From a virus (lineage: Duplodnaviria > Caudoviricetes), in the IMG/VR virus record IMGVR_UViG_2524614764_000005, positions 1 to 64,000 of that record: a stretch of 64,000 nt of DNA. One strand, given 5' to 3'. Below are positions 10,151-61,977 of this stretch, one piece after another. Every line of letters starts with the position of its first letter. The stretch's first letter is position 1. The notes under the pieces are model-generated. The model had not been told where the DNA came from. It was given only the letters and a program-made list of their open reading frames with translations, and did not search any database. Made by a program: the position numbers and the translations under genes.

Positions 10151-10276
10151 ATTAAATTCCTCCAATTGATTTTTTGAGCACAAAAAGAGAGCAGGGGATA
10201 ACCCAACTCTCTCGTTCTCACACATGCTCTGTTTTTCTCTGTTATGTATTGAATATATTCCTATAAAATCATAGTT

Positions 10277-12391
10277 TTATTTCAATAATGCTGCCTTAAG
10301 TTCACGCATCTCTTGCTGCATCTTTTCGGTTTCACGTCTCATTAGAGCCATTTCTAGGAATTGACACTCATCAGCACGAATGCCCCACATGTATCCGCCT
10401 TTTACAACTTCGATTTTCTCACCGAATTCTCCAGTTTTAGTATCTACCTTGTTTACAAATTCAGAATCCCATTTGTCATAGCAAAGTAATCCGATTTCGG
10501 TTGCATCTAAGCCGTGCTTTTTAAACACTTCGTCAATTTTCTGTGCAATGACACCAATATGCCATCTTGCAGAACTTCCTTTTTCACTCACTGCATCTTT
10601 AAACTTAAATCTACAGAAATCAACTTCAGACCATGCATCCAGCCATTCATCAGGAATATCAGTAATGTTTTGCTTATATCTTTCATCAGAAGTATTAATC
10701 GTTCCATTTGAAGCATAGATGTTAGCCCATCGTCTTGAAGGCGCTCCTAATGATTGAGAAGCATCAGTGTCTGGTCGCAAGTTTGCACGAAGGTTCATAA
10801 TATTGTTTCCCATATCACCATAGATGAAAGGAGAGGCGTTGCCATCATTGCCGTAATCAATCCATAGCAATCGATCTTGGTTACTGTTAGGCATCGCTTT
10901 ATTTCCGATGATGATTGAGTTGTTGCCAGTATAGTTGATGCCAGCTTCAGTCCCTACAACAACGTTACGACTACCATTGGCACCGTTCAGAAGTGTTCTA
11001 GCACCGATAGAGACGTTTGCTTCACCGTCTGTTTTATTTTGATGAGCGTAAGTTCCAATAACGGTATTTAAAGTATGAGATGCATTCTTATTTCCGTTTG
11101 ATCTTTGTCCAGCTTGATGCCCAATGAAGATATTTCTAGTACCGAAAACATCATAACCCATAGCGTTATTGCCGATAACAATGTTCTTTTGACCAGTTTG
11201 GTTGTACTTCATTGCATTTCTACCAATACCGATATTTTCTTTACCAGCAAGGTTGTTGGCCAATGCAAATGCACCAATAGCAGTACATCTTTCGGTAGTA
11301 TAAGATCTTGCTAGAGCTTGATATCCAATTGCGGTATTATGGATACCTCTAACCAATTGAAGCAAGGCGTTACGGCCAATGCCAGTATTCCCAAGCACTT
11401 GAGATGAAGAAGTTGCTGCAGGGAATCCTCCGCCCTCGTTAACAATAACTGCACCTTGAGGAGCAGGGTATCCTGTAGGCTGAATCAGCTTTTCAACTTC
11501 TGGGTTCATCTGCTTAAGAATGTAAGAATCCGTCCCTGAAATATTCCAAATATTATTCAAATCTTTTTCATTAAGCCACAACTCATGTCTAGAAACTATC
11601 GGATCTTTAATACCTGCCCATTTTAAGGAGTTGTTACCGATAGCTGTAGTACGACTGTAATATGTTCCTTGGGCTAGTGAACTTCCACCAAGTGAAACGT
11701 TTGAGTATTGTGTTTGGTTATTCATTTGAGATAAGAAGCCAATAGCAGTATTTTGCTTGCCAGAAGTGAGGTTTCTTAAAGAATCTTCCCCTGTAGATGT
11801 GTTGCCGTAAGCGTCTAAAGTAATTTTGTATCCTGAATTTTTTCCATAGAATTCATTGAGGATAGGAAGAGGGGTAGAGGTAAGAGGGAACAGCCGTTGA
11901 TCTCTTTTTTGACTTGGAGGAGCAGTAGCATTAAAAGCTTCTCTTTCTTTGACAATAAGGAATGCGCCGTTACCGAAGTAATTGCCTTTCAAATCAGCTT
12001 GATCAGCTAAATAAGTGCCTGGCGGAACAAAGATCGGATACTCATTATTAGATAGTGCTTCTGAAGCAAGGAATGCAGGCGTGTCATCTGTTTCACCATC
12101 TCCAACTGCACCAAGCCATTTAACGTTTATTCCACGTTGGTTTAATTCTTTTTTTATTGTATCTACAATGCTTCCAGTATCTCCTGCAAGCTCACCAATG
12201 TCTCCGATTAAATCAGCCATTTCTTTCAACTTGTCAGTAGTTGTTGTAGACAGGTTTGTTACTGAATCTAGAATTCCATCAAATTTAGCTTTAATTTCAG
12301 GTGCAGTATATCCAACACCGTCAGATTTCAGCAATTCAATGGCCATTGGTACATATTCACCAGTAACAGGATGTGGCATTCTAAAACCCAT
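10277..12391 (-). CDS. yomE: Tail spike with beta-helix repeats and C-terminal Peptidase_S74 intramolecular chaperone
   Basis: NVKWLGAVGDGETDDT, repeated NTAIG units, TSDERYK cleavage motif, GVIAQ. Confidence 0.8.
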   Translation of the reverse strand: MGFRMPHPVTGEYVPMAIELLKSDGVGYTAPEIKAKFDGILDSVTNLSTTTTDKLKEMADLIGDIGELAGDTGSIVDTIKKELNQRGINVKWLGAVGDGETDDTPAFLASEALSNNEYPIFVPPGTYLADQADLKGNYFGNGAFLIVKEREAFNATAPPSQKRDQRLFPLTSTPLPILNEFYGKNSGYKITLDAYGNTSTGEDSLRNLTSGKQNTAIGFLSQMNNQTQYSNVSLGGSSLAQGTYYSRTTAIGNNSLKWAGIKDPIVSRHELWLNEKDLNNIWNISGTDSYILKQMNPEVEKLIQPTGYPAPQGAVIVNEGGGFPAATSSSQVLGNTGIGRNALLQLVRGIHNTAIGYQALARSYTTERCTAIGAFALANNLAGKENIGIGRNAMKYNQTGQKNIVIGNNAMGYDVFGTRNIFIGHQAGQRSNGNKNASHTLNTVIGTYAHQNKTDGEANVSIGARTLLNGANGSRNVVVGTEAGINYTGNNSIIIGNKAMPNSNQDRLLWIDYGNDGNASPFIYGDMGNNIMNLRANLRPDTDASQSLGAPSRRWANIYASNGTINTSDERYKQNITDIPDEWLDAWSEVDFCRFKFKDAVSEKGSSARWHIGVIAQKIDEVFKKHGLDATEIGLLCYDKWDSEFVNKVDTKTGEFGEKIEVVKGGYMWGIRADECQFLEMALMRRETEKMQQEMRELKAALLK

Positions 12392-12415
12392 TAATTAATT
12401 CCTCCTTTATGTGTA

Positions 12416-13234
12416 TCAATCAGGCTTATACCATATCTGGCCTGTTTCTGGAGCTGCGTTGGAAATAACAACTCTTTTCTTGGTAGGACTTAAACTCTCA
12501 TCTTGATACCAAATATAATTTAAACTGTGTGGCTCATAAGCGCTCAAAAGAATATTGAATCCTTCATATACTTCTGAAACACCTATATCAACCCATTCGA
12601 ATCCATCCCATCGATAAACTGTTTTTATATTCTTAACAGCAACAGTCCAACCAACTTGAGGGTTTGGATATTCAATAATTAAATCTGAGTAGTTATTGAC
12701 GGACGGGTAGTATTTTTTCTTTGTTTCTTCAACGACACGTTCATATTGCGAGGTGATTTGACGGCACCAAGCAGTTATTTCTAAACATCGTTTGATGACC
12801 CGTTCGCATTCTAAGATTCTCTCATTCATACGAATAATACAATCTTCAGCTTCATCAATTAGACCTTGAAGTGTCTCAACTACTGTATTACCTGACCGTC
12901 TAACCCAAATACGTGCTGCAGGGAAGAAGTGGGCACCTTCGCCAACGTATTTTACCTGTAATTCTCTTCCTTCGTTAGAGGCATTAAAAAAGACAACTCC
13001 CATCATGTAATCAACACGATAACAGTCATCTTCTAATTCACCATCTTCAATTTCTTTCCACTCAGTATTTCCGCCACTTACCACAACTCTATTTTCACGA
13101 TTAGGATTTTCAGTTAACAATATCCGCCCATTTAAAATAGAATGGGTTTCATCATAGCTCATATAAGGATCATCGTAAGTGTTTTTTCGTTTGTTGTATA
13201 AGATTGGATCGTTATAAAGTTTTGGGAAATCCAT
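12416..13234 (-). CDS. yomF: Tail/baseplate protein YomF-like
   Basis: Synteny and recalled similarity to SPbeta YomF. Confidence 0.75.
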   Translation of the reverse strand: MDFPKLYNDPILYNKRKNTYDDPYMSYDETHSILNGRILLTENPNRENRVVVSGGNTEWKEIEDGELEDDCYRVDYMMGVVFFNASNEGRELQVKYVGEGAHFFPAARIWVRRSGNTVVETLQGLIDEAEDCIIRMNERILECERVIKRCLEITAWCRQITSQYERVVEETKKKYYPSVNNYSDLIIEYPNPQVGWTVAVKNIKTVYRWDGFEWVDIGVSEVYEGFNILLSAYEPHSLNYIWYQDESLSPTKKRVVISNAAPETGQIWYKPD

Positions 13235-13251
13235 ATAGAATCACTCCTTTC

Positions 13252-15942: not shown

Positions 15943-15952
15943 AGCAACCTCC

Positions 15953-16744: not shown

Positions 16745-16789
16745 TTAAAATCTCCTTAGTTAAAAGGAAAAGAGCCTGATTTCAGACTC

Positions 16790-19700
16790 TTATACCTTAC
16801 CTTTCATTTGCTTTAATCCTCTTCTGATGTTTTCCATTACACTGTTTGCGCCATTCTCATCACCAACCATTTTATCAATCTGCAAGGTTAGATTGTAAAC
16901 ATCGCCCTGATCATTCGACACAGTAGACATAACTGTAGACTGAGGAGCTTTTGTAAGTTTTGTGATCGCACTAGGAATAATGCTAATAGCTGACGCAGCG
17001 CTTTTCACAATATTCGCTCCTGCTAATTTAACTGCTTCAGTTGGCACACTAGTTAAAGCGGAGCTCAGTTTTTGTCCAGAACCCCATTTCGGGGTAAATG
17101 GCACATCATTTTGACTGATGTCTCTAACAGTTTCGACAGCTTTAAGCATATTTTCAGTGTCAGTCTTGTTAAGAACTAGCTCTTTATCATGGAGTACAGC
17201 TAATTTACCACTACCTAAGCCAGTACCAGTGTAACCACCAGTGTCAAAAGCGGCTACCTTTTTACCTGTTGTATTTCCCTTAACGACAACACCAAGAGCA
17301 TTTGAAGCCTCTTTAAGCTTATCGATCAAATTGTTAGAGATAGACTTGCCGATTGACTCCATATTTGAATTGATGAATTTAGTGAACTCAGAAAGCTGTT
17401 TATTGATATCACTAATCTTACCGTTCATCAATTTTCCTTCTAAATCCTTGAACCCACGCTCATCGTTTACAAGATCATCATATTTTGTGTTGATTGATTT
17501 CTCATCTTTTTCAAGTTGATCTTGTAGCGCTTCTTTACGCTTTGAGTTTTCCCGATCTTTCAGAAATTGATCTAAATCAAGCTGTTCTTTTTGCATCTGT
17601 TCGGTAAGCTCTTTAACCTTTGACTTACCAAACTCTGAATCATCTAATGCGTATTGATTTATCTGATCTAGAAGCTTTTGAATGCTTTCCTGACGATCTT
17701 TTAAATCTTTTTGGAACTTAGCTTCATCGTCTTCCTTGTCAATGCCATCAATGATATCTTGAGTAGCTTTACGATGAGCTTCAAGCTCAATATCGCGCAT
17801 CTTTTCGTACATCTCTTTATAAATGGAGACAACTTCATCAGCAAGCGACTTATAAATATCCTTAATACTTTTCTTGGTCTGATAAAGCTCAAGATTGAAA
17901 TCTTTTTGCTTATCTTTCCAAGATGAGATTTCATCCGATATTTGCTTTTGGATTTCAGGGAAACCCTTAGCTGCTTTCTTTTGTTTCTCTAAATCTTTTA
18001 TGTACTTTGCAGCTTCTTTTTGCTGTTGCTGAATCAGCTTGATTTGCTGACTATAGTACTTAACTTTATCTTTGTCTTCTTCGGTTGTCTGGATCTTGAT
18101 ATCGACGTTCTTAAGCTTTGATTCAGTCTTTTTGACTGACTTATCAATGTTATTAAGAATTTGATCGGTTTTAGATTGAACAATAGTAGCCTGCAACTCA
18201 TAAACCTGATCTTTGATGCTGATGAGGTCAAGTTTAGCTTGCTTTAATTCTTCACGTAATTGATCACGCTGAGCAGCATTCAATTGCTTATTTTGCTTTA
18301 GCTCTTTGTTTATCCAACTAACCTTTTGAGTTTGTATCGTTTGTTGCGCTTCAACTGCTTTACGTTGCTCATTTGTATATTTTCTAAACTGAGCACTATC
18401 GTTGAGATAGCGACTGGCTTTAGATTGGTTTTGAGCAACTTTCAACTCTAAATCAGACTTGCGTTTTTCAAATTCATCAAGTTTTGACTGAACGATTTCA
18501 TATTGTAGGTCTTGAATTTGGTCTTTGACAGAAGATAGATCACCTTCAAGTCCCAATAAATCTGATTTAGCTTGTGAAATAGCTTGTTGACGTTCAGCTT
18601 CAGAGCTAGACAAATCTGAGCCGATTTGTTGCATATATGCTTCTGGATCAATCGCTTTACCGTTTTTCTCAATCTGCATATGCAGATGAGTACCGGTAGA
18701 ACGACCAGTGCTTCCCATTTTGCCGAGAGTTTGACCAGCTTGAACCTTTTGGCCAGCCTTAACATTGAGACCTTTTTGCATATGCATATACTTTGCTACG
18801 GTGCCGTCATCTTGTTGAACAACTACCCAATAACCAGCAGATTTAGAGTATGCAGCAGTGAGGACTTTGCCCGATTTAAGGGACTTGATAGGAGTACCAG
18901 ATTTAGCAGCTAAGTCTAAACCTTTATGAGGAGCAGAGCGTAAACCTTTTTCTTGCTGACCGAAATGAGATGTTCTTCTCATGGAATCGTAATAACCAGC
19001 AGCCGATCCACCACTAGAGGATAGTGAACCACCCATTTGTTTAAAGTAGTTGTTTACTTTCTTAACGTAATTCTGCGTTTCCTTAAACGGAGGGATACCA
19101 CCATATTTAGTTACATTACCAGGCCCCGCATTGTATGCAGCTAAAGCTTTTTCAATCGAACCAAACTTATCAAGCATTTGCTTAAGATACTTGGTACCGC
19201 CCATTACGTTTTGATAAGGATCCCTAGAATTCTTAACTCCTAGACCTCTTGCTGTAGCAGGCATAAGTTGCATTAAACCAGTTGCTCCAACCGATGAACG
19301 AGCATTAGGGTTAAAGTTAGATTCTTGCTTAATAACCGCAGCAATTAACGCAGCTGGAACATTGTATTTCGATGCAGCTTGATTAATAATGTTTGAGTAT
19401 TTCCCTGAGTAAGTACCACCTGAAGCAGAATATGAAGAGCTAGAAGGGGAATAGGATGAAGAAGAATCAACTATGCCCGTTTGAGCAATGTATCCAGATT
19501 TAATTTGTTCTTTAAGTAGCTTAATCTGACTCTTAAGAAGTTTTTCTTTTCTTTCTAACGCCTTTATTTCCTTCTTAATTGAATCACGATATTTCTGACT
19601 CCATTTAGGGTAGTCGTTGGTCTTTCTATTTTGCTCTTCAATTTGTTTATTAACTCGCTCTAATGCTTCTTTATATTTGTCTGCAACGTAAATTGAATTT

Positions 19701-22075
19701 TTGGTAGACTCTGAGGCTTTATCAGCAGAGTCAGACATTGTTTCATAAGATGTGCCAACTTCGGTTAAGGAGGAGTTTACCAACTCAGACATCTTATCCA
19801 AATCTTCAAGCTGACTTGTGATATCTGACATTTCACCATATTGTTTATCCATCTCTAACAGTTCTGTAGGGTTTCTAGCTCCGCCGTCATCAATCTTCTT
19901 CTTTAAAGAAGCTAAATTAGATTGGGCATCTGCTACAGTTTGAATTGTTTTTACTTCTAAACCATAGTTTTTAATCTTTTTAGCAGTTGCATTAGCTTGA
20001 TTAAGCAGATCTTGTTTAACCGATTGTTGCATGTCGTTGTATGCTTTAAGCTTAACGTTTCTTAATTTTACAACTGCATCACGATTTATTTTCACTACAC
20101 CATTTTCAACGGAGATGGCTTCTGATAAACCTTTTTCTTTTTGGATAAGCTTCATTGCTTCTGAAGCTGAAATAGATTTGCCCTCAGCCATTTTCTCTAA
20201 CAGATCATTGAGAGGAGACATCTGGTCAGCTAAGTCATCATATACTTCACCTTGCAAAGCTTCCATTGCTGCTGTTGTTTGACCAGACTTCACCAATTGG
20301 TTCAATACATCTACAGTAGCTTCAATGTCGCCTTTAACTTCTTTGAGTTTATCAGACAGATTTCCAACTGATTCGCCTAACTCATCTACACCTTCACCAT
20401 TTTCATTCCAAGTTACTTTTGCTGAATCACCAGCATTTTTAGCCTGATCTAATGAATCTTTAAGGGAAGAGTAGGAGAGGTTCAAGTCGTCAACTTTTAC
20501 TTTCCCACCTGAAAACTCAGTGATAAGTGATTTTAGCGATGCTGTTTGCTTATCAAATTCTGAACCATTGCCATTGTTTAGAGACTTTTGAAGTGAATCC
20601 ATAATGACGGCAACTTGTTGTGAAAAGCTCTTGAGTTCATCAGGACTCAACTTGCTGAAGTCCATTGTATTCAAGATGTCAGTTATGGACTTTTTAATAT
20701 TAGGGTTAATATCAATCGAATTAAACGCACTGATTACATCTAAAACCGAAGCTTGAATTTCCGCATTTGCACTAACAATGGATTTTTTTAAGCGTAATGC
20801 TTCACCCTCGTATTTATAACCTTCTTTTACATAATCGCCATCGTCAGCAAAAGGGTTTTCAAAGATTCTTGTAATCCAACTTGAACCTTCTTTGTAGTTA
20901 TCAGCTAAGGCTTTATTTGCTTCCATTTCTTTGTTCAAATCTTTTAGCTTCTTAATTTGATCTTCAAAGTTGGAAGCTGCATTATCTTTTAAATCACGTT
21001 TATTGAAATTTGCCATCTCTTCAGTATATTTGATTGCCTCTTTTAAGGCTTCGTTGTTCTTAATGATGGCATTACCTTGAGCATCATACCCTTCAACTAG
21101 GTTAGGGAATGTTGCTGCTAACTGCTGTGAAACTGATAAGTATTCTTGTTCTTTTTCAGGCGTTAGTTGGTTCTCGTCTTTAGCTTTACGAAGCTCTTTA
21201 TATTTGTCTATTAAACCTTGAGTAGCTTCTTTATTTATAGTCCAGGCTTCTACGGAAGTTTTTTGTGCTGTTTCAAATTCCTCTTGAGCTTTTTTGGCAT
21301 CAGCATAAGTACTTACAAGCTTTTCAATCACAAATCCAAGAGCGGCAAAAGCTGCAATTGGAAGGGCGGTGCCAGCTAAAAACAATCCTGCTGATCTAGC
21401 GGCTTTACCAAGCGTAGCAAAAGAGAGAGAAAGTACTCTATTTGCAGTTGTTGCTAATCCCGCACCTGCTGAATATGTTTGCAATGTAAGAGGGAGGTTC
21501 TTGAGGAGGTTCCATATTTGAGAACCACTCTGCATAGCCGTTGTTCTTAAAGCATTAGAAAACAGTATAGTGGCCGCTGTAGCTGTTGCAAAAGCAGGAG
21601 CAAGGAAGCCGATATTTTTAACTAAGCCAGTGGTCAATCCCATGAAATTTCCTAGAGCTTCTGTAGAAGCGATAAGACCATCTGAAATGAAGGCATCACT
21701 GGCGGCAACAGCGAATTCAGTAACCGTATTTTGAAGGCGGTTTATCCGTGCCTGTAAACTGTCTGCATACTTTTCTTGCTCTTTCCATGCAGAGCCCATA
21801 GAGTTTGCAGCTGTATTGGCCGCATCTTGATAAATAGAGTAGTTATTTAAGAGGGCGTTAAATCTGGATAGTTGATAAATACCAGCTACACCAATGGAAG
21901 TGTTTTGCTTTTGAGCATCTGATAAGCTATCCCATTTTTCTGCCACTTCTCCAATTAGCTCGCTGGATGACTTAGCTTCACCAGCTGCAGTTTGTACTGA
22001 TATACCAATTTGGTCTAGTGCTTTAATAGCGCTCCTGTTATTGCCTATTCTTGCAAATATGGTTTTTAACGAGTT
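16790..22075 (-). CDS. cwlP: Tape measure protein / CwlP, exon 2 (SLT lytic transglycosylase + M23 peptidase)
   Basis: [20 protein letters not shown] (SLT), HKGLD..HLH (M23); frame extends upstream to 22075 ([11 protein letters not shown]). Confidence 0.88.
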
Positions 22076-22299
22076 CGATTCTGTTACTTCACCTTAAAGG
22101 TTACTGACCATTAAAAAATGGCGGTGTGGCACTTCAACCACACTCTCTATGTTTCCATAGAAGTTCAGACTGTCGCTTCACAAATAGTGTCTCTTCGCTC
22201 AGTCGTTCAGGCTGCAATTACGCTTGCCCCTTGTTGTCCTCGTCTATACGTTAGGAGTTCCAAGTCAATCAGAAGAGATTTAAAGTCAGCAATTCGTTT
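22076..22299 (-). ncRNA. Group I intron (224 nt, no ORF) in the tape measure gene
   Basis: Exon ends in U (GTCGGU), intron ends in G; P1 (AGUCGGU/GCUGACU), P3 (UCUCUUC/GAAGAGA), P7 (GACUG/CAGUC); removal restores the in-frame RESGNIVG|NSLKTIFAR. Confidence 0.88.
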
Positions 22300-28220: not shown

Positions 28221-28414
28221 GACATAGATCAGATAAACCCTTTCCTTTTTAAATAAATGAAGGAGGGTTTATCGGATTAAAATCAACCTTAAAATTAATA
28301 AATCCTTATGTCAATGAATTCTAAGGGCGCTAGTTATCTATGAGATATTTTTTGTTTTAACCATAAGCAAAATCCCTCAAAAGAAGGATCTTGATTCTGA
28401 ATAAAAGAGGGATT

Positions 28415-30340: not shown

Positions 30341-30407
30341 ATCTCTCCTTATGATTAAAATAAAAACACCTCAAATAGGGGAGAGGTGTCTAGATAAAAT
30401 TCTTATT

Positions 30408-37791: not shown

Positions 37792-37832
37792 TAAAATGCT
37801 CCTTTTATTGAGAAATTTTTGTGTGTAAATAC

Positions 37833-44660: not shown

Positions 44661-44704
44661 TCATCATCCTCATCAATAAATTAAGTTAAAATTAAAGTTT
44701 TATA

Positions 44705-47170: not shown

Positions 47171-47209
47171 CTCTAATATTGAAGAAGTGTGTAATTTATT
47201 TAGATAAAA

Positions 47210-47485
47210 TTAACCTTTTACAGCATCTTTAAGTGCTTTTGCAGCTTTAAACTTCGGTGCTTTAGTTTCAGGAATATCGATTTCTTCACCTGTTGAAGGG
47301 TTTCGGCCTTTGCGAGCTGCACGAGTTGTTGATTCAAAACCACCAAAACCTGCGATCTTAACTTGTCCACCTTCTTTTAACACAGATGTGATTTCATCTA
47401 AAGTCGTTTCAATTACCGAAAGTACTTCTTTCTTAGTAAATCCTGTCTTCTCAACCACAGCTGAGACTAATTCTGTTTTATTCAT
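47210..47485 (-). CDS. yonN: HU-family DNA-binding protein
   Basis: MNKTELV..GFGGF..RKGRNPSTGEEIDIP. Confidence 0.95.
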   Translation of the reverse strand: MNKTELVSAVVEKTGFTKKEVLSVIETTLDEITSVLKEGGQVKIAGFGGFESTTRAARKGRNPSTGEEIDIPETKAPKFKAAKALKDAVKG

Positions 47486-50895: not shown

Positions 50896-51192
50896 ATGAC
50901 ATATTTTGATGAAGTCGTTGCCAGATTAAATATTGATGATGTATCACTGTTAACATTGCTGCAAGAATGCGGAGCGAACAGGCTAATAAAAGGAATGACA
51001 AAAGAAGACTTCAAGATCGAATCAGTTAAGTTAGACACTCAATTTTCAGAAGCGACTATAAGATCAGCTTTAAGTAAATTAGAGGCACTGCTGCTTATTG
51101 AAAGAGACTCGTCAAGTAAGCACCATAAATTCATAATTACTTCATATGGAATTATGGCCTTAGAATATCATTTGGAAGGGGAAATGATTTAA
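50896..51192 (+). CDS. Winged-helix protein, TubR-like adaptor candidate
   Basis: SEATIRSALSKLEALLLI...ITSYG wHTH; coupled to tubulin gene; GGAGGTG RBS. Confidence 0.6.
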   Translation: MTYFDEVVARLNIDDVSLLTLLQECGANRLIKGMTKEDFKIESVKLDTQFSEATIRSALSKLEALLLIERDSSSKHHKFIITSYGIMALEYHLEGEMI

Positions 51193-52304
51193 TGTACGGA
51201 TTTGTGGGAATTGGTCAATGTGGTGGGAGCATTGCAGATGAAGCAATGAAAAGAGGATATTTCAGTATTGCTGTCAATTACTCTAGCTCAGATTTAAATA
51301 GTTTAGAAGTTGTTGAAGACAAACTAAAGCTAGTTGGATCCGAAGGAGTAGGCAAGGATAGGGAAGCAGCTATAAATTACTTTAAAAATAACTGGGAATC
51401 ATCTGTTGAATTCATCAAAGAAGCAATGGAAAAGCCATCGATTCAAGTAGTGTTCGTAGTCTTTTCAACAGCTGGAGGTACAGGATCAGGAATTGCACCG
51501 ACATTAATAGAATTATTAGATGAATATTTGGATAACAAAACCGTAGTTGCTGTACCAGTCATACCCGATAAAAGTGAAGTAATATTGAATCAACTAAACA
51601 CCGTTGAATGCCTTCAGGAACTGTCAGAAAAACAATTGAATGTAATTCCCCTAGACAATTTTAAAGTGTCTCAAAAGGGCATTAAATCGTTCTCAGAGCC
51701 TATCCTATATCAAAAGGTAAATAAACAATTTATTGATATGCTTGAAGAGGTTGAAGGGTATACAAACCTTCCGTCTAGCTACAGTACATTAGACAAGAAG
51801 GACTTAAATCAAATTTTCAATACTCCAGGTGTGACAGTGTTATCAAAAATGGATTTATCTGATTATAACAAAGGAAAATTCGCAAACACTCTACATGACG
51901 ATATTAAACAGTCATGGCAGCAATCCATTTTTAGCGCAGACACTTTTGATTCATTAGTTAAAGCTGGTGTTATTATAGACGGTAATGCAGATTTAACTGA
52001 TCAGATTAGCTTTAAGAGACTTTTCAGTGAGGGTGAGCCATTAGATTTATTTAAAGGATATTATGATACTGGTAAGAATCAAGTGATTTCAATTTTAAGT
52101 GGACTAGGATGGATTAACGACAGAATGAAGCAATTAGATGACCTGATTGAATCAAGAAAAGTTGAACCAGTAAAAGAAGAGGTATATGTTCCAAAATTTA
52201 ATTCAAAGTCAGCATTTTTAAAGCAGCAGACTAACACCAAAAGGGACGTAAAGCAGGTAAGTAAGGGGAGTTTCTTAGATAAACTTAAATCATTAAAGGG
52301 ATAA
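51192..52304 (+). CDS. Tubulin/FtsZ-family GTPase (TubZ-like)
   Basis: GIGQCGG, AGGTGSG tubulin signature, LDKKDL T7-like loop. Confidence 0.88.
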   Translation: MYGFVGIGQCGGSIADEAMKRGYFSIAVNYSSSDLNSLEVVEDKLKLVGSEGVGKDREAAINYFKNNWESSVEFIKEAMEKPSIQVVFVVFSTAGGTGSGIAPTLIELLDEYLDNKTVVAVPVIPDKSEVILNQLNTVECLQELSEKQLNVIPLDNFKVSQKGIKSFSEPILYQKVNKQFIDMLEEVEGYTNLPSSYSTLDKKDLNQIFNTPGVTVLSKMDLSDYNKGKFANTLHDDIKQSWQQSIFSADTFDSLVKAGVIIDGNADLTDQISFKRLFSEGEPLDLFKGYYDTGKNQVISILSGLGWINDRMKQLDDLIESRKVEPVKEEVYVPKFNSKSAFLKQQTNTKRDVKQVSKGSFLDKLKSLKG

Positions 52305-52311
52305 AACCAGG

Positions 52312-53732: not shown

Positions 53733-54965
53733 ATGTCAAAAGTAAAAATTATTGATTCGATTATGGGAAGCGGTAAAACAAGTCTAATGATTGATCACAT
53801 GAATGAATCATCTTTAGATAAACATTTCATTTTTATCACCCCATACCTGGATGAAGTATCAAGGATTAAGAAGTCATGCAGCAACAGAAAGTTTCATGAG
53901 CCTAAGGTGCACACAGAAAAGGGAGAGGTATTATATAAAATTGATTCATTTCATAAGTTGCTGTCAGAAAACAAAGACATTGTTGCTACTCACGCATTAT
54001 TTAGCATGTCTGACCAAACAACTAAAGATTTGATTTACTCAGGTAATTACACTTTGGTGCTAGACGAATCAATGGAAGTGATTAAAAAATTCAATATTTC
54101 CAAAGATGATTTAGATATGTTATTTAAAAACAAATGGATCATTAACAACAACGGTAAGATATTGTGGAACTCTGAGAATGAAGAAAAATTGAATAGGGAA
54201 TACAAAGGGGAGTTTCAGACATTAAAGAAGCTGGCCAAAAGTGATAATCTAATTTATCACAATGAATCTGTTTTGTTCTGGGAATTTCCTAGCGATGTCT
54301 TTAATAAGTTTAACAACGTGTATGTATTGACATATTTGTTTAATGCTCAGATACAAAAGTATTATTTTGACTTACACAAAATTGAATATGAATTATTATC
54401 AGTCGTAAAAGAAAATGGAAACTACAAATTAATTGCACATAATGAAAACTTGGATCAAAAGGTTAAAGCTGCTTTGAAAAATAAGATAAACATCTATGAA
54501 GGGGATTTGAACAAGGTAGGTGATGATTATTACGCATTGTCTAAGAATTGGTTTGAAAGTAGAACGGTTTTACATAAGCGATTAAAAAACAACATCTTAA
54601 ACTATTATCAAAACATCATTAAGTCTAAATCAAACGAGAACTTATGGACAACCTTTAAATCACATAAAGGGAAGTTGAGCGGTAAAGGATACACTAAAGG
54701 ATTCCTAGCGTGTAATATTAAAGCAACAAACGAATACAGTCACAAGAAAACATTAGTTTATTCAATAAATAGATTTGTTAATCCAGCAATTAAGGATTTA
54801 TTTAAGCAGAATAACATAGTGATAGATCACGATATATACGCACTATCAGAGATGATTCAATGGATTTGGAGATCAGCAATAAGAAATAATAAATCAATCA
54901 ACATTTACATTCCATCGTCTAGAATGAGAAACCTTTTAATAAAGTGGTTAGAAAATGACCTATGA
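53733..54965 (+). CDS. yonV: YonV-like helicase-fold ATPase
   Basis: MGSGKTS, LVLDES, QWIWRSAIR. Confidence 0.8.
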   Translation: MSKVKIIDSIMGSGKTSLMIDHMNESSLDKHFIFITPYLDEVSRIKKSCSNRKFHEPKVHTEKGEVLYKIDSFHKLLSENKDIVATHALFSMSDQTTKDLIYSGNYTLVLDESMEVIKKFNISKDDLDMLFKNKWIINNNGKILWNSENEEKLNREYKGEFQTLKKLAKSDNLIYHNESVLFWEFPSDVFNKFNNVYVLTYLFNAQIQKYYFDLHKIEYELLSVVKENGNYKLIAHNENLDQKVKAALKNKINIYEGDLNKVGDDYYALSKNWFESRTVLHKRLKNNILNYYQNIIKSKSNENLWTTFKSHKGKLSGKGYTKGFLACNIKATNEYSHKKTLVYSINRFVNPAIKDLFKQNNIVIDHDIYALSEMIQWIWRSAIRNNKSINIYIPSSRMRNLLIKWLENDL

Positions 54966-55200
54966 AAAAAAAAGCAATAAACCATTTTGAAAACTCAACT
55001 ACCGCAACAGTTTTTAGATGTCTCCCGTAAAAGAAAAGAAGTTAAAATTATAAATAATATATAGACTAAAAATAAGACCTTGGGGTGCTGACTTTGGTCA
55101 CTTCAACAAGTTGAATTGCCCTTTCGTCCTACACCACCCCAAACCCCTCATAGGACGTAATAAAATACTAAAAAAAATTAAAAATAACACACAAAAAATA

Positions 55201-55229
55201 TTGATTAAAATACAAATAACATATATAAT
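55201..55229 (+). promoter_or_regulatory. SigA promoter with SPBRE-like operator in the spacer
   Basis: TTGATT-17-TATAAT enclosing aaaatacaaataacatat. Confidence 0.75.
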
Positions 55230-55277
55230 GAAGATATAGAAAAGAACGAAATAAAATGAATATTTTAAAGGGAGAGA

Positions 55278-55472
55278 TTGGATATGAAAAAAGAAAAACC
55301 GAACAACTGGGTATGGACTAAATTAACAGAAGAAAAGCATCCTGATAGAAAAGCTGGAACACCTGTCCATACAGCTTATATGAGAGAGGGTGACGCTGAG
55401 TGGTCTCCTCACAGCTCATGGATTGCTAAAGGATATATCCAGCATGTTGATACGCTAAACTCGTCACAGTGA
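55278..55472 (+). CDS. Hypothetical protein
   Basis: GGGAG RBS. Confidence 0.65.
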   Translation: MDMKKEKPNNWVWTKLTEEKHPDRKAGTPVHTAYMREGDAEWSPHSSWIAKGYIQHVDTLNSSQ

Positions 55473-55570
55473 GTATAAACAAGCATTAGGCTGTGAGCGT
55501 CCTGGTCAATAGTGGCCAGGGGTTGTATCAAATGAAATTCTAATTTTATACAGAAGGAGAATGAGATAAT

Positions 55571-55816
55571 ATGACAAAAGAAAATAGAAACTTAGATATG
55601 CTTGAAGCCGAAAGAAAGATTGCTAAAAATAGATTGCAAGAACAGATTATTAGTATTAAAAGAACCTTGGATGATCTTGAATTTAAGCTCAAGAAAGATG
55701 ACAGGTATTTATTTTCATCTGATGGGCTTATGGGGAATAGTAATAGTATTGATATTTATTTAAATCAAGTTGTTGCATACGATCGAGCAATAGAATTAAT
55801 GAAAAGTGAAAGTTAA
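55571..55816 (+). CDS. Hypothetical protein
   Basis: AAGGAG RBS. Confidence 0.7.
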   Translation: MTKENRNLDMLEAERKIAKNRLQEQIISIKRTLDDLEFKLKKDDRYLFSSDGLMGNSNSIDIYLNQVVAYDRAIELMKSES

Positions 55817-55887
55817 ATAAAATGTTGATTTTCTACAGAAGGGAGTGATTCTGTCTGAAATACTTAAACGAGGCTGAACAGCGTGAA

Positions 55888-56187
55888 ATGTTGGAAGAAG
55901 AGGCTGAGAATTATTTGAGAAACCTCTACAATTCTAATCCAGTCGGCAGGGATGAAACCCCTAGCGTTTACCTGTCACAAGGAAAAATACAGGGTATGTG
56001 TAGAATATTTAATGCGACATTTACAGTAGAGCTTCGCAGAAAGATCACATTTTATAAATACAATAAATATCTTGATGAGAAGTTTTGGTTTCATGTAGAG
56101 AGTGAATATTTAACAAAGGAAGAAGCAGAACGTTTAATTAGCCAGATAAACAGGGATAACAGAGAAATCATGCAAGGGCTGTTATGA
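55888..56187 (+). CDS. Hypothetical protein
   Basis: ORF; start uncertain. Confidence 0.6.
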   Translation: MLEEEAENYLRNLYNSNPVGRDETPSVYLSQGKIQGMCRIFNATFTVELRRKITFYKYNKYLDEKFWFHVESEYLTKEEAERLISQINRDNREIMQGLL

Positions 56188-56204
56188 GGAAGAGGGGGCA
56201 ACCA

Positions 56205-56384
56205 ATGAAATTTAAAAACAAATATGATGCTTTAAATTACATCAATGAAAAATACGATGTTGTAAGCCATGAGGTAACATCATTTGAAGAGATAGATGAG
56301 TTTTGGCATTGTCTTAAACAATTGAATTTCATGAATAAGATACATGGTGATGATTTTAAGTTGGCAGAAAAAATTTGTGTGTGA
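56205..56384 (+). CDS. Hypothetical protein (probable start MKFKN)
   Basis: AGGGGG RBS. Confidence 0.55.
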   Translation: MKFKNKYDALNYINEKYDVVSHEVTSFEEIDEFWHCLKQLNFMNKIHGDDFKLAEKICV

Positions 56385-56407
56385 TCTGTATAGAGGAGAT
56401 TTATAAA

Positions 56408-56590
56408 ATGAACAAAAAAGAAATGACGGAGCAGGAGTTAAATGATATAAAAACTGAAATATTTCAATTAGAATCAGACAGAAATAATGTTGGTCATGCA
56501 GGCGTGATTGAATATATAGAGAAAAATTTGAAATTGTTGCGATTAGAAGAGGAGATGTATAAAAAAGAATTAGAAAGATTGAATGGATAG
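56408..56590 (+). CDS. Hypothetical coiled-coil protein (probable start MNKKE)
   Basis: GAGGAG RBS. Confidence 0.6.
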   Translation: MNKKEMTEQELNDIKTEIFQLESDRNNVGHAGVIEYIEKNLKLLRLEEEMYKKELERLNG

Positions 56591-56614
56591 AATATTAATC
56601 TTCCACAGAAAGGA

Positions 56615-56809
56615 GTGATGAGATTGGGAAATGAAGTTGTGTTTCTTTGCAGAAAATGCAATCATCACCTGTTTGCCGAAAATCCTACGATAAACACATT
56701 AAAAAGCATTTCAAAAATGGATTGCCCTGAATGTGGAGAAGAGGGTTATCATAATTGGATACTCTCACATGTGGGTGATTCTGAGAAAGAGAACTATAAT
56801 TGGAAATAG
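56615..56809 (+). CDS. Zinc-ribbon small protein
   Basis: CRKC...CPEC. Confidence 0.7.
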   Translation: MMRLGNEVVFLCRKCNHHLFAENPTINTLKSISKMDCPECGEEGYHNWILSHVGDSEKENYNWK

Positions 56810-56842
56810 TTAAATTGTTTCTTGCAGGACGGAGTGGTAAAT

Positions 56843-57121
56843 ATGAGCAATGAAAACACTTGGGGATTAGCTTTTATCCAGATCGATGTCAAAGAGGATA
56901 GGTTCAATGAATTACTGTCACTAAACTTGGGTTCAGAACATAAGGCAAGGGAAGTTTTTAATCGTGTTAAGAATGAGTTTAAGGAAAATGACGGAGAACC
57001 TGATGGTGTTATTGATCTTATAGATGAAAATGAAGAAATTATCGATGATTATGCACTTACTACAAATCAATTGATTACAGTTGCCGCAATGCTTGGTCAT
57101 GAAATCGGAAAATCAAAATAA
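56843..57121 (+). CDS. Acidic hypothetical protein (probable start MSNEN)
   Basis: GGAGTGG RBS. Confidence 0.65.
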   Translation: MSNENTWGLAFIQIDVKEDRFNELLSLNLGSEHKAREVFNRVKNEFKENDGEPDGVIDLIDENEEIIDDYALTTNQLITVAAMLGHEIGKSK

Positions 57122-57165
57122 AATGTTTCTTTTATACATAATGGAATTGTTTTTAATAAAGGAGG

Positions 57166-57471
57166 ATGATTAGTATCGCAAACAAAGGAGATATTCTTGT
57201 ATTCAAAGACGGTCAAGAATGTATGGTTGTCGAAAATAAAATAAGTCAAGGCAGCTACAATGAAAAAGGCGAATACCATAGCTGGGATGACAGCAGGTGG
57301 ATATTAGTGAATTTGGCAACAGGAAGTGTTGTATTACATTATCGATACAATATTCGATATGAAGATGGAATGCCTTATATACCTATGTGGGGCGGAGTAA
57401 CAAAAGTTAAAAAAAAGGGATCAGAAGAAATAATACGTTTGAGTGAAAATAAGATAAAACATGAGTTTTAA
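57166..57471 (+). CDS. Hypothetical protein
   Basis: AAGGAGG RBS. Confidence 0.65.
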   Translation: MISIANKGDILVFKDGQECMVVENKISQGSYNEKGEYHSWDDSRWILVNLATGSVVLHYRYNIRYEDGMPYIPMWGGVTKVKKKGSEEIIRLSENKIKHEF

Positions 57472-57508
57472 ACAAATAAATAACACATATTAAAAAGGAG
57501 TAATAGTC

Positions 57509-57679
57509 ATGTATGTTGTTAGATTAAATGGTGGTTACTTTAAAAAGGGATATATCAATATTGCAGGATTAGAGTTAGATCCATCAACGCCATTGAAAAA
57601 AGATGCTAGGAAGTTTAAGAGCATGAAACAAGCTTATTTTTTCTCTTATAAAATGAATGGCAAAGTCGAGAAAGCATAA
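57509..57679 (+). CDS. Small hypothetical protein (56 aa, MYVVRLNGGY...)
   Basis: Read by hand; AAGGAG RBS. Confidence 0.65.
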   Translation: MYVVRLNGGYFKKGYINIAGLELDPSTPLKKDARKFKSMKQAYFFSYKMNGKVEKA

Positions 57680-57707
57680 TAAATATTCTTAAAGGAGTGT
57701 ACCATGA

Positions 57708-57818
57708 ATGAAAACAATCCAGGAGCGGTTATTAAAACGGCGAGATGATTTAATCAGTGTTGCTGTATTTAGTATATTGGCCATTATGCTGCTTTGTGCA
57801 TTTGTTTATTCTGGATGA
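57708..57818 (+). CDS. Small membrane peptide (36 aa, MKTIQERLLKRRDDLISVAVFSILAIMLLCAFVYSG)
   Basis: Read by hand; AAGGAG RBS; C-terminal TM. Confidence 0.55.
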   Translation: MKTIQERLLKRRDDLISVAVFSILAIMLLCAFVYSG

Positions 57819-57852
57819 ATTATAAATTACATATATTTGAGAGGTGAATAAT

Positions 57853-58011
57853 ATGCGAGATCTAATTAAGAAAGAACTTTCAAAACCAAGTATACACAAC
57901 ATGTTTAAAGGTTGGGCAGATCAGGAACAAATTTTAGATGAACTTGAAGAAGGGTACGTAAGTTATGATGGCAGCGTAGAGGATTACTTAAGTAACAAAT
58001 TAAACTACTGA
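57853..58011 (+). CDS. Small hypothetical protein (52 aa)
   Basis: Read by hand; GAGGTG RBS. Confidence 0.6.
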   Translation: MRDLIKKELSKPSIHNMFKGWADQEQILDELEEGYVSYDGSVEDYLSNKLNY

Positions 58012-58038
58012 GCTTCTACATAAAAAGGGGTATGACCA

Positions 58039-58212
58039 ATGCCAATTGGAAAACAATTAAAACAAAAATTAGCTAACACAAATGCTTTTGAGAAGAAACA
58101 TAATGAATTCTTAATAGAAATTAAAGAATTTAAAAATAATAAAGAACTCCAAAATGAATATAAACGTGTGCAGCATGTTCTGAAAGATTCAATTGATGGG
58201 AGAGAGTCTTAA
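58039..58212 (+). CDS. Small hypothetical protein (57 aa)
   Basis: Read by hand; stop overlaps the next ATG. Confidence 0.55.
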   Translation: MPIGKQLKQKLANTNAFEKKHNEFLIEIKEFKNNKELQNEYKRVQHVLKDSIDGRES

Positions 58213-58835
58213 TGGAAAGCAGTGAAAGTGCATCACTTAAAGTGCCTAAACATATCATAAGAAATGATAAATTCTATATAACAAATCAGGAATTTCATCT
58301 ATACGCTTACCTTTGCTATATGAATTTCAGAAATTTCAATGAAGAAGAGATGGAAGTAGATCATCTCAAACTGAAAAATCTTCTTAAGATCAGTGACGCT
58401 AGGACATTGAAGAAGCGTTTAAACACCTTACATAAGCATAATCTTATAAGGAATAAAATCGATAAACTTCCAACCAAGGGTACTATGAAAATTATCTTTA
58501 ATGGAGATGTGAAAAAGGATCAAATGTTCTGCAAGATGAATCCAATCATATTTACATATTTTAAGAATGATCAAATAGACTCGAATGGAATTAGGTTGGC
58601 TTTTTATTACAAGAGTTTCTCACATGAAGGATACTGTACAGTGGGGTTTGAAACACTAAAAGAGAATTTGAAAATTGGGAATAGTACTATTTCCAATTCA
58701 AACAAATCTTTAGAGAGGTCAGAACTTCTGAAAATAAAATCACATAAGTTAGAAACGTATGGTTACAACCAAAAAGATGCGTTGGTTATCGATAGTTGGA
58801 GTAATCATTACCAAATCTTAGAACCATTACGTTAA
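58212..58835 (+). CDS. Tandem winged-helix protein (replication-initiator-like)
   Basis: Two HTH_36-like repeats (EFHLYAYL..; RLAFYYK..TLKENLKIGNSTI). Confidence 0.6.
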   Translation: MESSESASLKVPKHIIRNDKFYITNQEFHLYAYLCYMNFRNFNEEEMEVDHLKLKNLLKISDARTLKKRLNTLHKHNLIRNKIDKLPTKGTMKIIFNGDVKKDQMFCKMNPIIFTYFKNDQIDSNGIRLAFYYKSFSHEGYCTVGFETLKENLKIGNSTISNSNKSLERSELLKIKSHKLETYGYNQKDALVIDSWSNHYQILEPLR

Positions 58836-58893
58836 TTATTGAAAAAACAGTAATAAATTTCAATAGTTTAAAATAAGAGATAGGAGAGGTTTT

Positions 58894-59580
58894 TTGAGTA
58901 ATAACTCTGAATTACTAATTGCAAATGATGTCATCAGAGATCCGAATTTATCCAGTGAAGAATTTTCAGTTTACGCCGTTCTGATAAGGCTTTACTTCTC
59001 TAAAAAAGAGAAAGTGAATCCGATTCAAGTTAACCATAAACGAATTAGTGAACGGTTGGGAATACCAAAGAACGAGACTTTGAAAAAATACATAAATGGG
59101 CTTTATGAGAAGAAATTGATACTTAATAAGGTTGATGCTTTACCAAGAAAAGGCTTAATAGACATAACGTTAAATGAATCTCGACTACCTGTAAAGGGTA
59201 GCAATATAACTTTCACTCAAACCACTGAGAGCATTATATCATCCGAATGTGTGTCGCAAATTAAAATGAAGGGTATAAGGCTCTACTTCTATTTAAAGAG
59301 CTACATGGACACAAGGCACACTCCTTCATTTGCTTATCCAGGGATGGATAGAATTTCCGCCGAAACGGGAGTTGCAAAAAACACCATTAGAAAACATTTA
59401 TCTCTAATGAAAAACAAAAGGTTTATTGATATTCAACATTCGGATAAGCAAAGTTCCAAAGAGTCTTATTATGGTGAAGACGATCAAGTTATTACCACTG
59501 GATATCAGAACAAGTACATTTTATATGATCATCACATCAATGAATATGCAAGAAAGAATAGCGGTTTATCATGTGGTTGA
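58894..59580 (+). CDS. Tandem winged-helix protein, paralogue of 58212-58835
   Basis: LSSEEFSVYAVL; RLYFYLK..AYPGMDRISAETGVAKNTIRKHL. Confidence 0.65.
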   Translation: MSNNSELLIANDVIRDPNLSSEEFSVYAVLIRLYFSKKEKVNPIQVNHKRISERLGIPKNETLKKYINGLYEKKLILNKVDALPRKGLIDITLNESRLPVKGSNITFTQTTESIISSECVSQIKMKGIRLYFYLKSYMDTRHTPSFAYPGMDRISAETGVAKNTIRKHLSLMKNKRFIDIQHSDKQSSKESYYGEDDQVITTGYQNKYILYDHHINEYARKNSGLSCG

Positions 59581-60146
59581 AACCCAGTGTTCATACGAAG
59601 TGCAAAAATGTTGCGATATGGCAGCAAATAAAATACTCAAGTAAAATGGTGCTTGTGTTACTATCATTTCAAATGAGAGTATTTATTCATCACAGATGAC
59701 GGGCTATGTTAAACATAGGGCTTAGTTTCAACCGACACTCTCACAGCGCAATTTTGAGCTGTCAACTCATGAAGTAGTAATAAGCTGATGTCATTTGAAA
59801 CGACGGGAGATGCCGTCACGAATCGTTACGTCATCAATAAACAAATACTCACTCACCACAAAATTGTGGTCAGTAAAAAATTTATGGAATAGGGTGTAGT
59901 AAACAGAGTGTGTAGAAGGAGATTTTTCACTCAGTAATCTTTCCGAGTGAAAACATGAAATGAGCTTAATTTTGAGCCGGTGTCATTTCAAATGAGACCG
60001 GCTTCTGAATAAAATGATGTTTTTATTAATAAAATAATAATGTTGAAACTGATATCCTACTAAACTAACAATATGTTACAATGCCAATATAAGGATAACT
60101 TTAAAAGTAACTCACAAATGACAGCTGCTGAAAGGTTTGTTGAAAA

Positions 60147-60773
60147 ATGACAATGTTGATAGTTATGGCAACAGATAACAGTATTATTATGACTGCCGAT
60201 AAAAGAGTTACAAGAACAGATGGTTATGGGAAAGTTATAAAGATTGTGTCGGATGATTATAAAAAAATAAAAATAATAAAAGGGAAGTATATTGTTTCTT
60301 TTGCTGGCAGAACAGCAATTGCGGAAAAAGCATTCAAATTTATTGATGAAAAAATTGTATCGTTGGAATATGACATTCATTTGTTTTTTAAAAATGCATT
60401 TCAATACGGAAAAGCCTGTTTTGAAAACAGTTTTCCAAATATAGAACCTACATCAGTATTCTTTCTGGGTTATATTAAAGATGATACGAGTTATTTAAAA
60501 GGCTACTCATCAGACGATGATTACAAAGGAATGCCTATCTCTGATAGTATAAAGGTTAGAGCGGAATCCCTTGTTGTGGAGAATCTCCTTTTTAATGAGA
60601 CGCAAAATTTCCTATCAACCAAAATATCTAGTCGACCATCTTTTTATCAGTCCAATGAAAACCTTTCAGTTCTTTTTTCTGAAGCAATTAAAAGAATGAA
60701 TGATCAAATGATTGGAAAAACAACCTACTCTGTGGTTTTAACATCTAATGGTGCAACAGAACTGCACAATTAA
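60147..60773 (+). CDS. Ntn-hydrolase / proteasome-beta-like protein
   Basis: Met-Thr start, IIMTADKRVT, KI, VSFAG pattern. Confidence 0.6.
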   Translation: MTMLIVMATDNSIIMTADKRVTRTDGYGKVIKIVSDDYKKIKIIKGKYIVSFAGRTAIAEKAFKFIDEKIVSLEYDIHLFFKNAFQYGKACFENSFPNIEPTSVFFLGYIKDDTSYLKGYSSDDDYKGMPISDSIKVRAESLVVENLLFNETQNFLSTKISSRPSFYQSNENLSVLFSEAIKRMNDQMIGKTTYSVVLTSNGATELHN

Positions 60774-60869
60774 CTTATTGACTGTTATAAGAAACAATTG
60801 CAAAATGAGCTTCAGTGTTAGTAATAAAGATCAAATAAAATCATTCTTTTAAGGAGAGGTGACAGTTAG

Positions 60870-61922
60870 TTGATTAACATTTTTATAGATACGAACATCT
60901 ATGAGGCGAAGAATTTTAATTTTGATAATAGTAGTATTTCCAGGCTGCAAAATTTCATTGAGAATGAGCATGTTGAATTATTTATAACACCCGTAATAAT
61001 AAAAGAAATCGAAGATCACATTGAACAAAAGGTTGAGGGGTCAGGGAAACAAATTAAGGAATTTAAACAAAATGCGCCTATTATGATAAATTTTGAACCA
61101 TTAAAAAAGATATGGGATCGCGACTTGATAAATCAAGCAAAATTGAAAATTTTAGACCGCTTTCATGAATTTTTAAGAATAAATAGAGTGTATACAGTTC
61201 CTATCAGTGTCACTTATGCAAATCAAATTATACAAAATTACCTTGAAGGCAGTGCGCCTTTTAGTAAAAAAAAGAAGAAAGAATTCCCAGACGCTTTTAC
61301 TATGTATACTCTTTTGGAATGGGCTGAAAAAAATAACGAGATAATTTGTATAATTAGTAATGATAAGGAAATTAGGGATTTTTGTGAGGGTAATTCTAGA
61401 CTCTATTACATCAAGACATTGGAAGAGGCCTTTGATTATATAAACCAACAAGATGATGTTAAGTATCAACAAGCTCAAAACATTTATATGGATCATCTGG
61501 AACAATTTCTAGATGATATAGACAATGAAATTAATGAAGCATGCTTTGCTTTTAATATAGAGGTTTTTGATGTTGAAGATGTAAAAGTAAAAGACTTTTC
61601 TCTTGTGAGAGAAGGGGAATGCTACGATGAGCCTCGGGTTCTTGAATTAGAAGATAGTAAACTTACATTTGTACTTGATGTTAATTTTGAGTTTACTATT
61701 GTAACCAGTAAAATTGACCCCACAAGATCTCCATACGATTCTGAGGAGGGAATGTACTTATACATAGAATATGAAGAAACAGAATATACAGAAATCGTTG
61801 AGCTACCGGTAGAACTTGAATTAAATGTTCAGGATTATGAGAAACAAGACTTTATTATCGAATCAATAAAAATAAATAATGATGAAGCATATCTACATAC
61901 TATTAATGATGATTATTTTTAA
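60870..61922 (+). CDS. PIN-domain protein (DUF4935/PIN_12-like)
   Basis: IFIDTNI, E-I, APF..KKEFPDAF, IISNDK. Confidence 0.8.
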   Translation: MINIFIDTNIYEAKNFNFDNSSISRLQNFIENEHVELFITPVIIKEIEDHIEQKVEGSGKQIKEFKQNAPIMINFEPLKKIWDRDLINQAKLKILDRFHEFLRINRVYTVPISVTYANQIIQNYLEGSAPFSKKKKKEFPDAFTMYTLLEWAEKNNEIICIISNDKEIRDFCEGNSRLYYIKTLEEAFDYINQQDDVKYQQAQNIYMDHLEQFLDDIDNEINEACFAFNIEVFDVEDVKVKDFSLVREGECYDEPRVLELEDSKLTFVLDVNFEFTIVTSKIDPTRSPYDSEEGMYLYIEYEETEYTEIVELPVELELNVQDYEKQDFIIESIKINNDEAYLHTINDDYF

Positions 61923-61977
61923 AATTAAATGTGCTATTTTAAATAAAAGAAGTATTTCATTTAGAAGGTGATGAAAA

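Follow-up and report, generated by a model that had tools for sequence, protein, structure and literature searches.

The 64,000-nucleotide stretch analysed here (the window) covers the first 64 kb of IMGVR_UViG_2524614764_000005, a single virus record of 104,461 bp from an SPbeta-like phage of the Bacillus pumilus group. It carries many copies of a short inverted repeat, TAAAA-N6-TTTTA, in which two 5-bp arms face each other across a 6-bp spacer. Judged from sequence and distribution, these copies probably act as addressed crossover joints for the exchange of gene cassettes, and they have the core geometry of tyrosine-recombinase sites. The repeat is enriched at this exact spacing, is placed at gene junctions and is symmetric at the level of DNA; homology between related phages starts and stops at its edges, and individual spacers are conserved where the flanking DNA has been replaced.

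The phage genome contains a minus-strand late gene block together with the arbitrium gene AimR and a YopP/YopQ/MrpR module, and the YonO RNA polymerase gene in the window has ∼71% DNA identity to its SPbeta counterpart. Of the cellular relatives found, the closest is a Bacillus pumilus 36R_ATNSAL prophage (92% identity of the YonO protein), whose sequence, L098, was used for the comparison of spacers and addresses.

There are 12 perfect copies of TAAAA-N6-TTTTA in the window, compared with 1.02 ± 0.99 in dinucleotide shuffles, and none of 100 shuffles reaches 12. An earlier reading of the same DNA, the initial annotation, had estimated about one copy per window by chance, in agreement with the shuffles; it had placed nine of the perfect copies correctly and missed those at 3043, 35099 and 37792. 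As a control for composition, we scanned spacers of 0-24, which keeps the base composition exactly. Only N6 is enriched, with 12 copies in the window versus 0-3 for each other spacing, 21 versus 0-4 across the whole 104-kb genome, and 34 versus 0-4 in SPbeta. The shuffles and the spacing scan rule out chance or base composition as the origin of the copies, and uphold the excess over background that the initial annotation had proposed. When the copies are aligned, a weaker symmetric extension becomes visible (approximately TcT-nn-A-TAAAA-N6-TTTTA-T-nn-AgA), so that the recombinase-type geometry suggested at the outset is found as a 5+6+5 core with weaker symmetric flanks to about 11-6-11.

Conservation of the arms is nearly all-or-none. 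As a class, one-mismatch copies show no enrichment over other spacings in this phage and SPbeta, the exception being the form TAAAA-N6-TTTCA (9 copies versus 2.2 in the two genomes). The initial annotation had added four one-mismatch copies, at 55533, 55818, 61926 and 61944. All four exist, and those at 55533 and 61944 belong to a real variant class, while 55818 is a homology border in relatives; the copy at 61926 is without support. In a scan of 21 related prophages for any palindromic 5-N6-5 word, arm position 2 is A or G on the left and T or C on the right, each arm varying independently. The true motif is TRAAA-N6-TTTYA (R, A or G; Y, T or C), which has 16 sites in the window versus 2-6 at other spacings. 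Written as both arms A/both arms G/one of each, the arm forms number 20/4/33 in the Paenibacillus prophage G012, 26/1/23 in G046, 4/10/17 in G029, 21/0/10 in this phage and 34/0/2 in SPbeta. The form with G in both arms, TGAAA-N6-TTTCA, is common, flanks included, in prophages of Paenibacillus barcinonensis (L045) and P. illinoisensis (L041), with 10 and 7 copies, respectively, versus 0.3 at other spacings.

Thirteen of the 16 window sites (14 if a shadow open reading frame (ORF) at 30395 is discounted) lie outside gene interiors, in DNA that makes up 12.7% of the window (p = 9e-10). At several sites the upstream gene ends in a stop codon that the site itself provides, an overlap expected for about one frame in three of any gene running into a TAA-containing site. 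The placement outside gene interiors bears out the junction bias that had been noticed initially. Sites are found from 3 to 100 kb of the genome, on both transcription directions and in early and late regions alike, and 7 of the 16 fall within 55.2-62 kb, where the density had been described as highest. The individual sites are as follows, in window coordinates and with the strand of each gene in brackets; contig borders refer to public contigs from four runs (two rhizosphere metagenomes, two isolates) that were aligned to positions 54,900-62,100.

3043-3058: TAAAA-CAGTTA-TTTTA, close to where ORFs 2227-3078 (-) and 3078-3350 (-) meet; lies within a called ORF, at its 5' end, which makes the junction status uncertain.
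10264-10279: spacer TCATAG; ORF 10277-12391 (-) takes its stop codon from the TTA of the site.
28402-28417: variant TAAAA-GAGGGA-TTTCA, with the TCA serving as stop codon for the yomM homolog; same spacer as the SPbeta site at 39886.
30395-30410: spacer TTCTTA, between ORFs 29858-30340 (-) and 30558-30830 (-).
30814-30829: variant TAAAA-TATTGT-TTTCA, junction of ORFs 30558-30830 (-) and 30845-31927 (-).
35099-35114: perfect copy inside ORF 34996-35688 (-), possibly a chance copy.
37792-37807: perfect copy that overlaps both the start of the yonB-like gene 36778-37791 (-) and its ribosome-binding site; conserved counterparts in SPbeta (50182) and L009.
44687-44702: spacer TTAAAG; SPbeta (57148) and the B. 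pumilus 36R prophage have the identical 16-mer in syntenic position.
47205-47220: spacer TTAACC, located where the HU-like gene 47210-47485 (-) stops.
55252-55267: spacer TGAATA; contig homology ends at 55274/55287; spacer also in L098 at 495.
55533-55548: variant TGAAA-TTCTAA-TTTTA; border at 55530/55535; spacer also in L098 (3164) and SPbeta (131162).
55818-55833: decayed copy TAAAATGTTGATTTTC; border at 55817 in several contigs.
57119-57134: spacer TGTTTC; ORF 56822-57121 stops at the TAA of the site; contigs cease to match beyond 57135; spacer in L098 at 4175, with both flanks unrelated.
57455-57470: spacer CATGAG; contig homology starts at 57444/57447; spacer in L098 at 4924.
60010-60025: spacer TGATGT; contig borders at 60025 (end) and 60009 (start); spacer in L098 at 6019.
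60836-60851: spacer TCATTC; the PIN-domain gene follows 18 nt later; contigs begin to match at 60834.
61944-61959: variant TAAAA-GAAGTA-TTTCA, just after the PIN-domain gene 60870-61922.

In the region covered by the alignment, the public contigs start or stop matching at 55274/55287, 55530/55535, 55817, 57135, 57444/57447, 60009, 60025 and 60834, and these borders are the edges of all five perfect sites in 54.9-62.1 kb and of the variants 55533 and 55818. At site 60010, a 91.5%-identical contig on the left ends at the last base of the site and a 99.9%-identical contig on the right starts a single base ahead of it, so that the two blocks overlap by exactly the 16-mer; the right-hand block, from 60009 on, has its 99.9% match in a contig from a rhizosphere metagenome.

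The same behavior is seen among relatives of SPbeta. We compared an 18-kb early region of SPbeta, phi3T, SPR, Goe13, SPbetaL4 and SPbetaL8 by BLAST with a strict x-drop, and rely on this analysis; default-parameter BLAST of SPbeta versus phi3Ts blurs the borders. Homology starts exactly at TAAAA or stops just past TTTTA, with the whole 16-mer in common and the opposite flank unrelated. The left flank of one and the same 16-mer, such as TAAAAGATGCATTTTA, differs in some phages and its right flank in others, and yoqD forms an 835-bp block, 100% identical, with a site at each end. Site edges account for 54 of 207 unique collapsed borders and for 42 of the 91 that are intergenic (3.6 would be expected if intergenic borders were uniformly placed), and 41 of 50 sites are used as a border. 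Hybrids of phi3Ts and SPbeta from an evolution experiment have six of seven crossover intervals in parent-identical blocks (1.4-18 kb) that are edged by sites; these six crossovers are not resolvable.

Within a genome the spacer differs from junction to junction, and at one junction it is the same in related phages. The L098 spacers TGAATA, TGTTTC, CATGAG and TGATGT occur in the same order as at window sites 55252, 57119, 57455 and 60010, and the DNA between them differs in length and is mostly unrelated, also by tblastx (one interval has no match, one a common 43-residue stretch, and one a single common gene). The TTAAAG site at 44687 has syntenic counterparts in the B. pumilus prophage and SPbeta, and the flanking DNA is unrelated among the three. 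At least 8 of the ∼31 sites of the phage have the spacer of an SPbeta site (TTAAAG, GATAGT, GTAATT, GAGGGA, GATCAA, GTTTTA, GGATGA and TTCTAA), in genomes whose homologous genes are only ∼70% identical in DNA. Four of these sites differ in the right arm, which is TTTCA here and TTTTA in SPbeta, and the TTCTAA site differs in the left arm. Among 15 genomes, 95 genome pairs share a spacer, versus 31.7 ± 5.8 at random. The initial annotation had supposed that breakpoints of gene gain and loss would fall on the sites, and this is what is found within the window, against the B. pumilus prophage and among the SPbeta relatives.

None of 353 sites (249 distinct spacers) has a fully palindromic spacer, where 3.2-8.7 would be expected, according to the null chosen (p 0.002-0.04); palindromes of the central dinucleotide are not depleted. 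A spacer set free of palindromes is suggestive of a 6-bp spacer that sets the direction of the site, as in lox, FRT and dif. In general, however, 6-bp palindromes are rarer than expected in these phages (observed/expected ratio 0.80), which makes the test no more than a hint. We also searched around the sites for decayed partners with the same spacer, the signature of circle integration, and found no general signal (186 versus 149 in scrambled controls, at up to 4 mismatches). As a single anecdote, a decayed TGTTTC copy, TAAATTGTTTCTTGCA, lies at 56811-56826, 308 bp upstream of the perfect copy at 57119-57134, and the pair flanks ORF 56822-57121 as circle integration would leave it.

The evidence points to a motif that acts at the DNA level rather than as an RNA hairpin. 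A role in RNA, whether as hairpin, terminator, processing site or translation signal at gene ends, could be imagined from the complementary arms and from the position of the sites at stop codons and ahead of ribosome-binding sites, and we regard it as highly improbable. The 5-bp A-U stem is not stable, and the predicted folds of each site with 8 nt on either side have minimum free energies of -0.1 to -4.5 kcal/mol with z-scores of about 0. Compensatory pairs are not enriched in this phage or in SPbeta. Position-2 changes are independent between the arms, and the hybrid-arm sites, read on the sense strand, comprise 70 with a possible G.U pair and 81 with A.C; the two kinds are equally common, which a hairpin would not accommodate. 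An Rfam scan of the window gave a single match, a Pistol ribozyme at 55459-55527, which overlaps none of the sites. Finally, the late genes form one YonO transcript with a single start upstream of yonK (PMC5467207), which also excludes the sites as YonO promoters. A sigma-A promoter reading (TTGAAT-N17-TAGAAT) was rejected as well, as it suits only a few of the SPbeta copies and not those in the window.

The mechanism that we propose starts from a double-stranded DNA site with inverted TRAAA-core arms, weaker symmetric positions to ∼11 bp and an asymmetric 6-bp spacer. Related genomes would meet through co-infection or infection of a lysogen, and a site-specific protein, most likely a tyrosine-type recombinase of the phage or the host, would pair sites of the same spacer and exchange the DNA on one side. 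Two such exchanges at neighboring addresses would swap a gene cassette, and the unlike spacers within one genome would prevent deletions and inversions. Stated in its widest form, this would amount to natural recombinase-mediated cassette exchange in the SPbeta-like phages of many Firmicutes, in which dozens of heterospecific sites with common arms and position-specific 6-bp spacers would allow a recombinase to exchange accessory and anti-defence genes between related phages wherever addresses match, while leaving the gene order intact; we put this forward tentatively, as a possibility slightly short of even.

Several observations weigh against an exchange system of this kind. Other borders in 54.9-62.1 kb are at ribosome-binding sites or within genes, which makes the sites just one of several kinds of border. 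Many mosaic borders are away from sites; with default BLAST, only 3 of 54 block ends between SPbeta and phi3Ts are at sites, and one crossover in the phi3Ts/SPbeta hybrids maps to a 40-bp interval that contains no site. The lack of palindromic spacers is in part explained by the general avoidance of 6-bp palindromes just mentioned. No phage protein co-varies with the sites in the samples compared, and the pairing rule, the recombinase, the binding protein and the reaction are inferred. Identical islands of 16-22 bp could moreover serve ordinary short-homology recombination, with no dedicated enzyme. In an alternative reading, the sites are operators of a dimeric phage DNA-binding protein, regulatory or architectural (compare the stoperators of mycobacteriophage L5, or SPBRE and MrpR), and take part in exchange only because they are the sole islands of identity between unrelated cassettes. 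Two-fold symmetric arms one helical turn apart, located between a stop codon and the next ribosome-binding site, speak for an operator, and SPbeta-like phages encode several DNA-binding proteins of the tyrosine-recombinase fold, of which MrpR is a pure repressor (PMC10516654); the borders and the laboratory crossover away from sites are in keeping with this as well. An operator does not explain, however, why a junction-specific spacer persists where flanks have been replaced and the DNA has diverged by ∼30%, why copies with one mismatch show no enrichment, or why palindromic spacers are absent, and the ten peaks of MrpR in chromatin affinity purification sequencing (ChAP-seq) are all at SPBRE, a different motif (PMC10516654). 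We consider operators unlikely, if clearly worth keeping in mind, and crossover joints the better account of the spacers.

The phage has three genes of the tyrosine-recombinase fold, YomM at 28.4 kb, a YopP-like gene at 64.8 kb and an MrpR-like gene at 67.3 kb. The initial annotation had named YomM, which is encoded in the tail region (28418-29416 (-)), as an example of such an enzyme. YomM is a very conserved Cre-like tyrosine recombinase whose catalytic activity is predicted from its sequence. It is 84-86% identical to SPbeta YomM amid tail-gene neighbors of 26-56%, its best matches in the PDB are Cre (E = 0.03), and a near-complete version of the catalytic R-K-H-R-H/W-Y set (R180, K211/K217, H281, H309 and Y319) is invariant in 21 diverse homologs, all of which have Lys (K284) at the Arg II position. 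The yomM stop codon is also overlapped by a variant site whose spacer is conserved. Against these points, the replacement of Arg II by Lys leaves catalysis unproven, and YomM was not found by protein or profile search in two site-rich prophages, G046 (at least 25 sites in 87 kb) and G002, which carry unrelated recombinases in the late region. YomM thus cannot be the general reader. Nor does its presence track site density (7 of 12 site-rich samples versus 3 of 5 low-count samples). That YomM acts on the sites is improbable, and this part of the initial annotation was not sustained. Correlation of gene content with site density over all ORFs of this phage in 21 YonO prophages gave no discriminating protein. 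Once TRAAA/TTTYA arms are allowed, every one of these samples with a phage-like GC content has sites; of the six site-free samples, four have a host-like GC content and two (G018 and G020) have no SPbeta-like gene other than YonO.

Some features of the window stand apart from these questions. The PIN_12-domain protein at 60870-61922 (+) is a single-gene cassette between the sites at 60836 and 61944. The Pistol self-cleaving ribozyme (Rfam RF02679, + strand) scores 65.5 bits, with a gathering score of 34.5; it stops 6 nt short of the variant site at 55533, in a small cassette bounded by that site and 55252. An accessory protein at 58212-58835 has no relatives among genome or viral contigs. Just upstream of yonO, at 51192-52304 (+), is a protein of the tubulin/FtsZ family (Pfam Tubulin, E = 4e-20) to which no SPbeta ORF corresponds. 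Two separate ORFs, 16790-21946 and 22207-23838 (-), represent the yomI-like tape-measure/transglycosylase gene, and each of them matches SPbeta yomI.

How large temperate phages hold their gene order while constantly replacing small accessory genes, anti-defence genes included, is unexplained. If our reading is true, dispersed and addressed crossover sites would provide a concrete mechanism that can be put to the test in SPbeta and phi3T of B. subtilis, a genetically tractable model. They would also make cassette limits predictable across hundreds of Firmicutes prophages and, if the enzyme is found, provide a natural multi-site system for cassette exchange. Even as operators, the sites would be a strict 16-mer present in 30-60 copies per genome of a model phage and unreported in the literature searched, where we found no paper describing the motif.

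Among known systems, SPBRE is likewise a repeated intergenic element, which occurs in the same phages and is read by a protein of the tyrosine-recombinase fold. It is the 15-bp operator of MrpR (YopR) in SPbeta, located in promoters and recovered as ten ChAP-seq peaks (Kohm et al. 2023, PMC10516654). Identity with SPBRE is excluded; SPBRE has another sequence, a promoter location and no association with mosaic borders, and is a distinct motif that adjoins some of the sites (at aimR, yorE and yosX). Stoperators of the L5 type are asymmetric, oriented with transcription and bound by the immunity repressor, whereas the phage sites are symmetric and occur in both directions, and the SPbeta repressor MrpR binds SPBRE only (PMC10516654). 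The PeSL (promoter-early stem-loop) cassettes of T4-type phages (Arbiol et al. 2010, PMC2839356) likewise involve a short intergenic motif that is repeated in hyperplastic regions of a large phage and marks insertions, deletions and replacements of small genes. PeSLs are, however, units of promoter and terminator that undergo homologous recombination between copies and give mini-circles (PMC2839356), whereas the phage sites are 16-28 bp long, fold poorly, have no stable stem-loop and differ in their spacers. Inspection of their flanks revealed no consistent -35/-10 elements, no promoter scan having been made. The dif modules of Acinetobacter plasmids, flanked by pdif (XerC/XerD) sites (Mindlin et al. 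2019, PMC6449649), resemble the phage system in having many copies of a recombinase-type core, arms plus a 6-bp spacer, in accessory regions, with a site on each flank of adaptive genes and the same modules in different replicons (PMC6449649). They differ in that the arms of the phage site are identical in consensus (a palindrome) instead of the distinct XerC and XerD arms of pdif sites, which resemble the host dif site, the phage spacers are junction-specific and kept in order, and the carrier is a phage.

The initial annotation had called the system integron-like. Integrons do share gene-sized cassettes bounded by recombination-type sites, but the comparison does not hold further. Their attC sites are imperfect palindromes of 57-141 nt that recombine as folded single strands, and no sites of this type were seen here, the 16-bp core (∼28 bp with flanks) folding at only -0.1 to -4.5 kcal/mol. 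Nor is there an IntI-attI platform with a one-directional array, an integrase beside the array or a single insertion point; the phage sites are dispersed over 3-100 kb in both directions, each with its own spacer. In core sites of the lox, FRT and dif type, inverted arms surround an asymmetric spacer of 6-8 bp, as they do in the phage sites. The phage sites depart from Cre/loxP, FLP/FRT and Xer/dif in that the strongly conserved part of the arm is only 5-6 bp and the cognate enzyme, which would bind the arms and cut at the edges of the spacer, is a presumed one. Copies with unlike spacers coexist in the phage as they do in engineered recombinase-mediated cassette exchange, in the form of heterospecific lox and FRT sites.

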